This document shows, piece by piece, positions 49,401-52,400 of a stretch of 62,354 nucleotides of DNA. Origin of the DNA: a virus (lineage: Duplodnaviria; Heunggongvirae; Uroviricota; Caudoviricetes); the IMG/VR virus record IMGVR_UViG_2880412407_000008, one strand, 5' to 3'. A program made the position numbers. Within the stretch, counting starts at the first letter, position 1; the number at the start of each line of letters is the position of its first letter.

Positions 49401-52400
49401 AGTTTTCGGTGTCAGCATGGCTGGTAAATAACTGGTATCCCACAGCAAGTATCAGCGATCTGCTGGTTGTGGTGATGAAAAAATCCACAGCAGGTATCAG
49501 TATCAGCTGAATTTTATAACCCAGAACGGGCGTCAGAAATGACGCCTTTTTTATTGCAGAAAAGCGAGAGGTAATTATGCGTAAACTTTATGCCGCCATT
49601 TTGTCCGCAGCCATTTGTCTGACCGTATCCGGTGCGCCTGCATGGGCGTCTGAGCAGCAGGCCACGCTGAGCGCGGGGTATCTTCATGCCCGGACGAACG
49701 CTCCCGGTAGCGATAATCTTAACGGGATTAACGTGAAATACCGTTATGAATTCACGGACACGCTGGGGCTGGTGACGTCATTCAGCTATGCAGGAGACAG
49801 GAATCGCCAGATTACCCGTTACAGCGATACCCGCTGGCATGAAGATTCCGTTCGTAACCGCTGGTTCAGCGTAATGGCGGGGCCGTCTGTGCGCGTGAAT
49901 GAATTGTTCAGCGCGTATGCGATGGCGGGTGTGGCTTACAGCCGTGTGTCGACTTTCTCCGGGGATTATCTTCGCGTAACTGACAACAAGGGGAAAACGC
50001 ACGATGTGCTGACCGGAAGTGACGACGGTCGCCACAGCAACACGTCTCTGGCGTGGGGGCTGGCGTGCAGTTTAACCCGACCGAATCCGTGGCCATTGAT
50101 ATTGCTTATGAAGGCTCCGGCAGTGGCGACTGGCGCACTGACGGTTTCATCGTGGGTGTCGGTTATAAGTTCTGATTAGCCAGGTAACACAGTGTTATGA
50201 CAGCCCGCCGTTTCAGGCGGGCTTTTTTGTGGGGTGAATATGGCAGTAAAGATTTCAGGTGTACTGAAAGACGGCACAGGAAAACCGGTAGAGAACTGCA
50301 CCATTCAACTGAAAGCCAGACGTAACAGCGCCACGGTGGTGGTGAACACGGTGGCCTCTGAAAATCCGGATGAAGCCGGTCGTTACAGCATGGACGTTGA
50401 GTACGGTCAGTACAGCGTCATTCTGTTGGTGGAGGGATTCCCGCCGTCACATGCCGGGACCATCACCGTGTATGAAGATTCTCAACCGGGGACGCTGAAT
50501 GATTTTCTCGGTGCCATGACGGAGGATGATGCCCGTCCGGAGGCACTGCGTCGCTTTGAACAAATGGTGGAAGAGGCAGCGCGTCACGCCGGGGAGGCGA
50601 AGAAGAATGCCGGAGAGGCGGAGACGTCAGCGAGGAATGCCGGCATATCAGCCAGTCAGGCAGAAGAGAGCGCGGCAAATGCTGACACTTCAGCAGGGGA
50701 GGCATCGGAGTCAGCCCGGCAGGCGACGGAAAGTGCAGCCTCAGCAAAGCAGTCAGAGGAGGCGTCCTCGTCCTCGGCCTCTGCGGCCGCTCAAAAAGCC
50801 AGTGAGTCATTACAAAGTGCAGCAGATGCTGAGTTGTCAAAAAAGACGGCAGAAAGTGCAGCCGGTAATGCAGCCAGGGATGCAACGACCGCAACAGAAA
50901 AAGCCCGGGAGTCAGCAGAAAGCGCACAGTCAGCGGAACAAAGCAGGATAGCGGCGGAAGAAGCCGTAAACAGAATCCCCACCGTGGTGGGGCCTCCCGG
51001 GCCAAAGGGGAACCGGGGCCCGCGGGTCCTCAGGGGCCGAAGGGAGATAAAGGAGAGCGTGGAGACACCGGCCCTGTCGGGGCAACCGGTGAACGGGGAC
51101 CGAGAGGAGATACAGGTCCGGCTGGCCCGCAGGGCCGAAAGGTGACAGGGGAGAGCGGGGAGAGACCGGTCTGACGGGAAATGCAGGTCCACAGGGTCCA
51201 AAGGGAGATACCGGTGCGGCAGGCCCGGCAGGCCCACAGGGACCGAAAGGAGAAACAGGTGCGGCTGGCCCGGTGGGGGCAACCGGACCTCAGGGACCGA
51301 AGGGCGACCCGGGGGAGACACAAATACGGTTCCGTCTGGGGCCGGGAAACATTATTGAGACAAACAGCAATGGCTGGTTCCCGGATACAGATGGCGCACT
51401 CATCACCGGACTGACCTTTCTTGACCCCAAAGATGCCACACGGGTTCAGGGTTTTTTTCAGCATTTGCAGGTCAGGTTTGGTGACGGGCCATGGCAGGAT
51501 GTTAAGGGACTGGATGAAGTGGGCAGTGATACAGGCAGAACAGGAGAATGACATGAATATACTAAAAAAACTTATGCAGCGTCTGTGTGGTTGCGGAAAG
51601 CATGATGACTGTGAACACGTGCAGTCGCTTACAGCACAACTGCGACTGGGGCCAGCAGACATCCTGGAGTCAGATGAGAATGGTATTATCCCGGAGCAGG
51701 ACAGGGTAATCACGCAGGTGGTGATACTGGATGCGGATAAAAAGCAGATACAGTGTGTGGTAAGACCGCTGCAAATCCTGCGTGCTGACGGGACGTGGGA
51801 AAATATTGGCGGGATGAAGTAACCCGACAGCTTCACAAAACCGGAGTCCGGCTCCGGTTTTTGTTGTCATGTCCGGGGAATATTTGTTAGATAAAAAAGA
51901 GGAGATAATTCAATAGGGAGTTAAATTAATGCCGATAAATCTGACATCTTATTTGTGGGTACAGGGACAGAAAGTTGTCCCGGCAGTTGTGTTTTCTAAT
52001 TTTACTTTAGTGGACTAAGTAAAAAGGAGTGAGATAAATGCTGCCCACTACAAATATCTCTGTAAATTCTGGAGTAATATCTTTTGAAAGTCCTGTAGAT
52101 TCACCATCTAACGAGGATGTTGAAGTTGCCCTCGAAAAGTGGTGCGCTGAGGGAGAATTTAGCGAAAATCGTCATGAGGTTGCATCAAAAATACTTGATG
52201 TTATAAGTACTAATGGAGAGACTTTATCAATCAGTGAGCCAATAACAACATTACCAGACTTGCTTCCAGGTTCTCTGAAAGAACTGGTTTTGAATGGATG
52301 TACAGAGCTTAAATCAATAAACTGCTTACCCCCCAACTTATCTTCATTAAGTATGGTTGGATGCTCATCATTAGAGGTTATAAATTGCAGCATACCTGAA

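Follow-up and report, generated by a model that had tools for sequence, protein, structure and literature searches.

The laboratory strain lambda PaPa lacks side tail fibres because of a genuine frameshift of 1 nt in its stf gene. The locus described here resembles lambda in its J-lom-stf gene order, in the protein families that it encodes (Ail/Lom, PF06316, and PF08400) and in the kind of lesion, a single-base frameshift. Unlike the 774-aa lambda Stf, the fibre protein at this locus has 437 aa, a collagen region and a PF06820 C-terminus, and downstream of its gene lies a fragment of tfa rather than an intact copy. Moreover, whereas the lambda stf lesion has been verified experimentally, the lesions considered here are known from sequence alone. 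The lom gene of the cif/nleH prophage offers a second point of comparison, since its corresponding G run shows the very same deletion (G6 to G5) in both O103 strain RM8385 (USA) and strain 2313 (Japan), where the gene occupies positions 7554-8152 of each locus sequence. This lom pseudogene is inherited and genuine, because it is common to two independently sequenced strains that lie 17 substitutions apart (17 substitutions and 3 indels in 16 kb). Unlike it, the lom deletion at the present locus is private and stands alongside four other deletions in G/C runs.

A third point of comparison comes from sequencing itself. Among the residual errors of long-read assemblies, false homopolymer deletions predominate (PMC12007338), and the advice given for frameshifts of this type is to judge them by whether the sequence downstream is intact (PMC4853030). 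The lesions at the present locus look like PacBio CLR/Quiver or Nanopore errors in being private single-base homopolymer deletions that create apparent frameshifts in repeated genes (PMC4853030, PMC12007338). They are unlike typical long-read homopolymer errors in that two of the runs have only 4-5 bases, and the likeness is one of pattern alone.

The window, that is, the whole stretch of 62,354 nt that was analysed, corresponds to the ssrA-integrated effector prophage (sodC, nleL, espN, espK) of E. coli O121:H19. The region of interest is the tail end of this lambdoid prophage, where the gene order is J, lom, Stf-like fibre gene, 89-aa gene, nleL, espN, espK, ssrA and smpB. The tail tip gene J (1157 aa; 46037..49510, + strand) lies directly upstream of lom, and a small intact gene of 89 aa with a PF06820 fibre C-terminal domain (51553..51822, + strand) lies downstream of the fibre gene. 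Between the tail assembly gene and J sits sodC, which encodes a Cu/Zn superoxide dismutase (45376-45903, - strand); it is cargo within the tail module on the opposite strand and is kept in the O121 relatives. As close relatives we took the eight O121:H19-type genomes that are at least 99% identical among the complete RefSeq E. coli genomes. The main reference was strain FWSEC0006 (NZ_CP031910.1), which is collinear with the window over its full length (62,354 nt). Comparison with GTVSS-020, an independent flour isolate, covers 49 kb, and comparison with 2014C-3655 covers 8.3 kb around the finding. Three further complete O121:H19 genomes of lineage L1, RM8352, 51104 and E15042, have been reported (PMC8767318).

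The lom gene, coding for an Ail/Lom outer-membrane beta-barrel protein (49577..50175, + strand), is out of frame after codon 160. As it stands, its ORF spans 49577..50179 and specifies a normal Lom up to ...SLAWG, after which the frame is lost at a GGGGG run (50055-50059, + strand). The C-terminus, GAGVQFNPTESVAIDIAYEGSGSGDWRTDGFIVGVGYKF, is found in a different frame (50053..50175), and the last 39 lom codons, GAGVQFNPTESV...GVGYKF, are preserved in that other frame. Alignment with two O121:H19 genomes showed that exactly one G is absent (G6->G5), and all eight RefSeq O121:H19 genomes have G6 at this run. Once repaired, Lom matches PF06316 in Pfam over positions 1-199 of 199 (E 2e-116); the unrepaired ORF matches positions 1-164 only, with the C-terminal strands and the ...GYKF end out of frame. 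The first-pass annotation had described the Lom C-terminus as out of frame after a G run near 50060, which agrees with the switch mapped here.

The Stf-like prophage tail-fibre gene (50240..51551, + strand) is split over three frames. It begins at ATG 50240, and its architecture comprises a PF08400 N-terminal domain, an Ala/Ser/Glu-rich rod, a collagen Gly-X-Y region and a PF06820 C-terminal domain. The first frame reaches its stop codon at 51143-51145, while the Gly-X-Y region passes into a second frame at the GGGG run (51007-51010) and into a third at the GGG run (51132-51134; both runs on the + strand), the third frame ending at the stop codon at 51549-51551. These are the two switches that had been called near 51010 and 51135, and with them all three single-base breaks in G runs reported for lom and the collagen-like fibre gene (49577-51551) were confirmed. 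In alignment with two O121:H19 genomes, exactly one G is absent at each fibre site (G5->G4 and G4->G3), and nothing else differs in lom or the fibre gene; the first run is G5 in 1293 of 1293 homologous places and the second is G4 in relatives. The unrepaired product of 301 aa keeps PF08400 (positions 1-133 of 134, E 6e-70), with neither the collagen region nor PF06820 detected by Pfam. After two Gs are restored, Pfam recovers PF08400 together with the collagen domain PF01391 (E 3e-18) and PF06820 (E 5e-35).

Comparison with related prophages found both genes intact. An intact 199-aa Lom is present at the ssrA prophage in eight of eight RefSeq O121:H19-type genomes, and the fibre there has 437 aa in five of them and an in-frame 404 aa in three. 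The 2.3-kb region matches at 99.3-99.9% in these eight complete genomes, each match having 2294 nt versus 2291 nt in the window. The exact NleL protein occurs in 1031 blocks of the public collection, and among the matches listed the nine distinct NleL neighbourhoods that reach upstream all encode a 199-aa Lom and a fibre of 404, 437 or 637 aa. This intact set includes CP051631, E15042 (AP024478) and several drafts, Illumina drafts among them. In hundreds of genomes the lom and fibre homologues form a single continuous frame, and exact-product look-ups in public assemblies returned no record of either truncated product, the 200-aa Lom or the 301-aa fibre protein. Other assemblies of this region have private lesions of a similar sort, which count in favour of assembly error: lom and the fibre gene are both marked 'frameshifted' in FDAARGOS_536, as are the fibre gene and nleL in 2013C-4830. 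In 2014C-3655, a private C7->C6 change splits espN into 140 + 833 aa (at about locus position 8346, about window position 55383); espN is intact, with 1133 aa, in the window and in other strains.

The fibre alleles of O121:H19 assemblies also vary in length (404, 437 and 637 aa) through in-frame variants of the collagen region (window 51052-51149). The 404-aa fibre is missing 99 nt of this region with the frame kept, and the variation is a real repeat-number change that preserves the frame.

We next consider the differences across the window as a whole. Over 62,354 nt, the window differs from FWSEC0006 by one substitution, one repeat-number change of 24 nt and five single-base deletions, at 29288 (G8->G7), 38082 (C4->C3), 50054 (G6->G5), 51006 (G5->G4) and 51131 (G4->G3). 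Each of the five single-base indels is a deletion on the window's side and falls in a G/C run; together they make up five of the seven differences, a pattern not expected from chance substitution. GTVSS-020 has the FWSEC0006 allele at six of six point differences over the 49 kb compared, and 2014C-3655 agrees with FWSEC0006 over the 8.3 kb around the finding. Across the 1975 nt of lom and the fibre gene there are no substitutions relative to FWSEC0006, and restoring three Gs yields a 600-nt lom and a 1314-nt fibre gene with 100% nucleotide identity to that strain. The sequence downstream of the lom and fibre frame breaks is perfectly preserved.

The first-pass annotation had left open whether the two genes are pseudogenes or products of artefact. 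Our results favour artefact, because the deletions are private, confined to G/C runs, unaccompanied by substitutions, located in an exact repeat and absent from related assemblies. The three frame breaks are thus probably uncorrected homopolymer deletions of a long-read assembly rather than mutations of the strain, a reading to which we assign a probability of about 0.8. In such an assembly, G homopolymers would be under-called in the long-read consensus, and the errors would survive because the DNA around them has exact copies elsewhere in the genome, out of reach of short-read polishing. Since short reads cannot be placed uniquely in repeated DNA, errors of the long-read consensus stay uncorrected there. 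The strain would then most likely carry an intact lom and an intact gene for a 437-aa collagen-like Stf-type fibre.

The repeat context is consistent with this explanation. A stretch of 1769 nt encloses all three sites, and O121:H19 strain 16-9255 has a copy of it with 100% identity in a second prophage, which is located at ydfJ and carries nleC. The local contexts of the three lom and fibre sites have 4 to 9 copies per O121 genome, those of the deletions at 29289-29295 and 38083-38085 have two, and the deletion contexts are therefore all sited in intragenomic repeats (2 to 9 copies). The clustering of three of the five deletions within 2 kb exceeds what the density of G/C runs predicts (P ~0.003), and we attribute it to the repeat context, the copy number being known for the deletion contexts only. 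In their form, too, the changes follow the pattern of long-read error: five of five are single-base, sited in homopolymers and biased toward deletion, and they are private to one assembly with the exception of G7 at 29289-29295, which is present in two PacBio O121 assemblies. Set against artefact are the lengths of the intact fibre runs, 4 and 5 bases, which are less typical of long-read error than 6 to 8, and the fact that the lom G6->G5 change also occurs for real, in RM8385/2313, and is carried by about 23-25 of 4605 genomes.

The two deletions outside lom and the fibre gene call for separate comment. The G7 run at 29289..29295 (+ strand) lies in the tail of an HNH endonuclease pseudogene and is G8 in FWSEC0006 and GTVSS-020. 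Nine other assemblies have the G7 allele, among them those of the O121 strains 2014C-3599 and 2015C-3107, which belong to a CDC set and, going by reference 55 as listed in PMC8767318, were published as PacBio sequences. Although their 404-aa fibre allele is the one found in 2015C-3107, strains 16-9255 and 2002-3211 lack G7 at this run. Because the G7/G8 pattern does not track O121 relatedness, it suggests recurrence rather than descent. We also considered G7 as a repair or a break of the HNH gene, but only the tail of an already truncated ORF is altered, which makes the site uninformative in this respect. The C3 run at 38083..38085 (+ strand) is part of an intergenic terminator-like hairpin between a gp17-like gene and the major tail gene; relatives have C4 at this run, and the C3 allele was found in one other genome among 5426 complete genomes.

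The foremost alternative is that the deletions are real and very recent replication-slippage mutations, which would make true pseudogenes of lom and the fibre gene; in a prophage already defective and no longer able to form particles, both would be free to decay. Slippage is natural at G/C runs, the prophage is in a defective state throughout the O121:H19 genomes so that selection on its tail genes may be relaxed, and the identical lom G6->G5 change is inherited in another prophage lineage and scattered over about 0.5% of genomes. The spectrum of changes, however, argues against this alternative. Five homopolymer deletions versus one substitution in 62 kb would be surprising even if one in five mutations were an indel (P <=0.0016), and the 5:1 ratio of indels to substitutions in the window is the opposite of that in the diverged RM8385/2313 prophage pair (3 vs 17 in 16 kb). 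The distribution among runs is equally difficult to reconcile with slippage. The window contains 872 A/T versus 322 G/C runs of at least 4 bases, and 144 A/T versus 17 G/C runs of at least 6. By run length alone, slippage would favour the long A/T runs, yet five of five deletions fall in G/C runs (P ~0.0014) and none in the 144 A/T runs of at least 6 bases.

The fibre gene speaks against real mutation as well. It would have taken two independent hits with no substitutions, and the two hits there plus one in the neighbouring gene, again with zero substitutions, imply either no elapsed time or no mutation. Neither fibre allele was seen in 5426 genomes: the G4 allele at 51007-10 was absent from all 1293 homologous places, and the G3 allele at 51132-34 had no full-length match in any of 3676. 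A scan of genome contigs with a 40-nt sequence of the fibre deletion allele likewise gave no match. Natural variation of the O121 fibre (404, 437 or 637 aa) keeps the frame, and both genes are intact in all related genomes. Taken together, we consider real mutation at the three sites unlikely.

The lom lesion differs from the other two in this regard. Among 4605 genomes with lom, the run is G6 in most lom copies, and the G5 allele is present in about 23-25 genomes (~0.5%), which are scattered across unrelated serotypes and have the gene annotated as 'frameshifted'; none of these carriers is O121. Since the G6->G5 change is real in another prophage lineage, the lom G6 run is a natural slippage hot spot. 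For the same reason, namely that the same change is inherited elsewhere, the lom lesion would be the most plausible of the three as a genuine mutation. An extension of this argument holds that the G runs of lom, and possibly those of the fibre collagen region, are genuine hot spots whose slippage repeatedly silences surface proteins of STEC prophages, and that the isolate is a natural triple mutant. We regard this proposal as improbable, and more so than real mutation in general.

Still less probable, and in our estimation very unlikely, is that the runs form a functional device, either phase-variation switches for lom and the fibre or sites at which programmed ribosomal frameshifting allows read-through. 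The lom G5 allele does recur in unrelated genomes, and the first fibre break falls on the heptamer A-AAG-GGG (window 51004-51010), which, read from the sequence, conforms to the X-XXY-YYZ pattern of -1 slippery sites. Tracts at contingency loci are generally longer than those of the intact alleles here, which have only 4 to 6 bases. Phase variation also fits poorly with the rarity of the alleles, 0 of 1293 and 0 of 3676 places for the fibre and about 0.5% of the lom genomes with no O121 relative among them, and no +1 alleles were seen at the runs. As to programmed frameshifting, the frame change is not conserved, each homologue being one uninterrupted ORF; the second fibre break lacks a slippery sequence, and two simultaneous switches would be required in the fibre. 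Because the homologues need no frameshift, the A-AAG-GGG heptamer is regarded as a coincidence.

Two further explanations were rejected: gene conversion from a damaged paralogue would need separate events in lom and the fibre gene, with no donor carrying these alleles among 5426 genomes, and a mismatch-repair mutator strain is contradicted by the lack of an excess of substitutions or transitions (one C->A transversion vs five indels).

Taken at face value, the annotation of this region would list two pseudogenes and could suggest that an effector-carrying STEC prophage has lost both Lom and the side tail fibre, when the genes are almost certainly intact in the strain, judging from the sequences compared. 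The finding contains nothing new and its explanation is an ordinary one; it serves mainly as a caution, since assembly errors gather in prophage tail modules that are present in several copies. The effector and virulence cargo (nleL, espN, espK, sodC) is unaffected under either reading. If the deletions were real, Lom would lack its last beta-strands and terminal Phe and, going by general knowledge of outer-membrane protein assembly, would very probably fail to insert into the outer membrane. The fibre would end after its N-terminal domain and rod, and the changes would amount to the ordinary late decay of an already defective prophage.

Indeed, the prophage is a defective remnant whichever reading is correct. 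According to RefSeq annotation, its portal gene is frameshifted, and its replicative helicase, HNH, TerB, tfa and DinI genes are truncated or stopped; the window is identical to FWSEC0006 at the portal, helicase, TerB, tfa and DinI decay genes. These observations qualify both consequences drawn in the first-pass annotation. That an artefact would leave the tail module intact is right as far as lom, the fibre gene and the tail genes go, but not for the prophage as a whole, which is defective in all O121:H19 genomes. That real lesions would cost the prophage its side tail fibres is of little consequence for the phage, since the prophage is already defective. The portal lesion is probably real, because it is common to independent assemblies. 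The portal region (window 34003-36587) consists of two ORFs of 454 and 407 aa with a 4-nt overlap; for both FWSEC0006 and GTVSS-020, RefSeq marks the gene 'frameshifted'. Positions 35589-36121 contain a repeat whose period is about 162 nt.

The sole substitution in the window, an A for C at 47460 (context CACACCC), changes Pro to His in J (...LRHT[P/H]GD...). No public assembly has the exact product of this J variant on record, and the substitution could be a genuine private SNP or one more consensus error. The 24-nt difference from FWSEC0006 lies in a (CCAGAG)n hexanucleotide repeat (window 13300-13360) within the ORF 12249-13562, a hypothetical gene in the island left of the prophage. At 13331 the window is four units shorter than FWSEC0006, and its repeat-number allele has no exact product on record in public assemblies. 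The repeat is variable and in frame, giving a protein of 437 aa in the window, 445 aa in FWSEC0006 and 415 aa in GTVSS-020, and it could be used as a strain marker.
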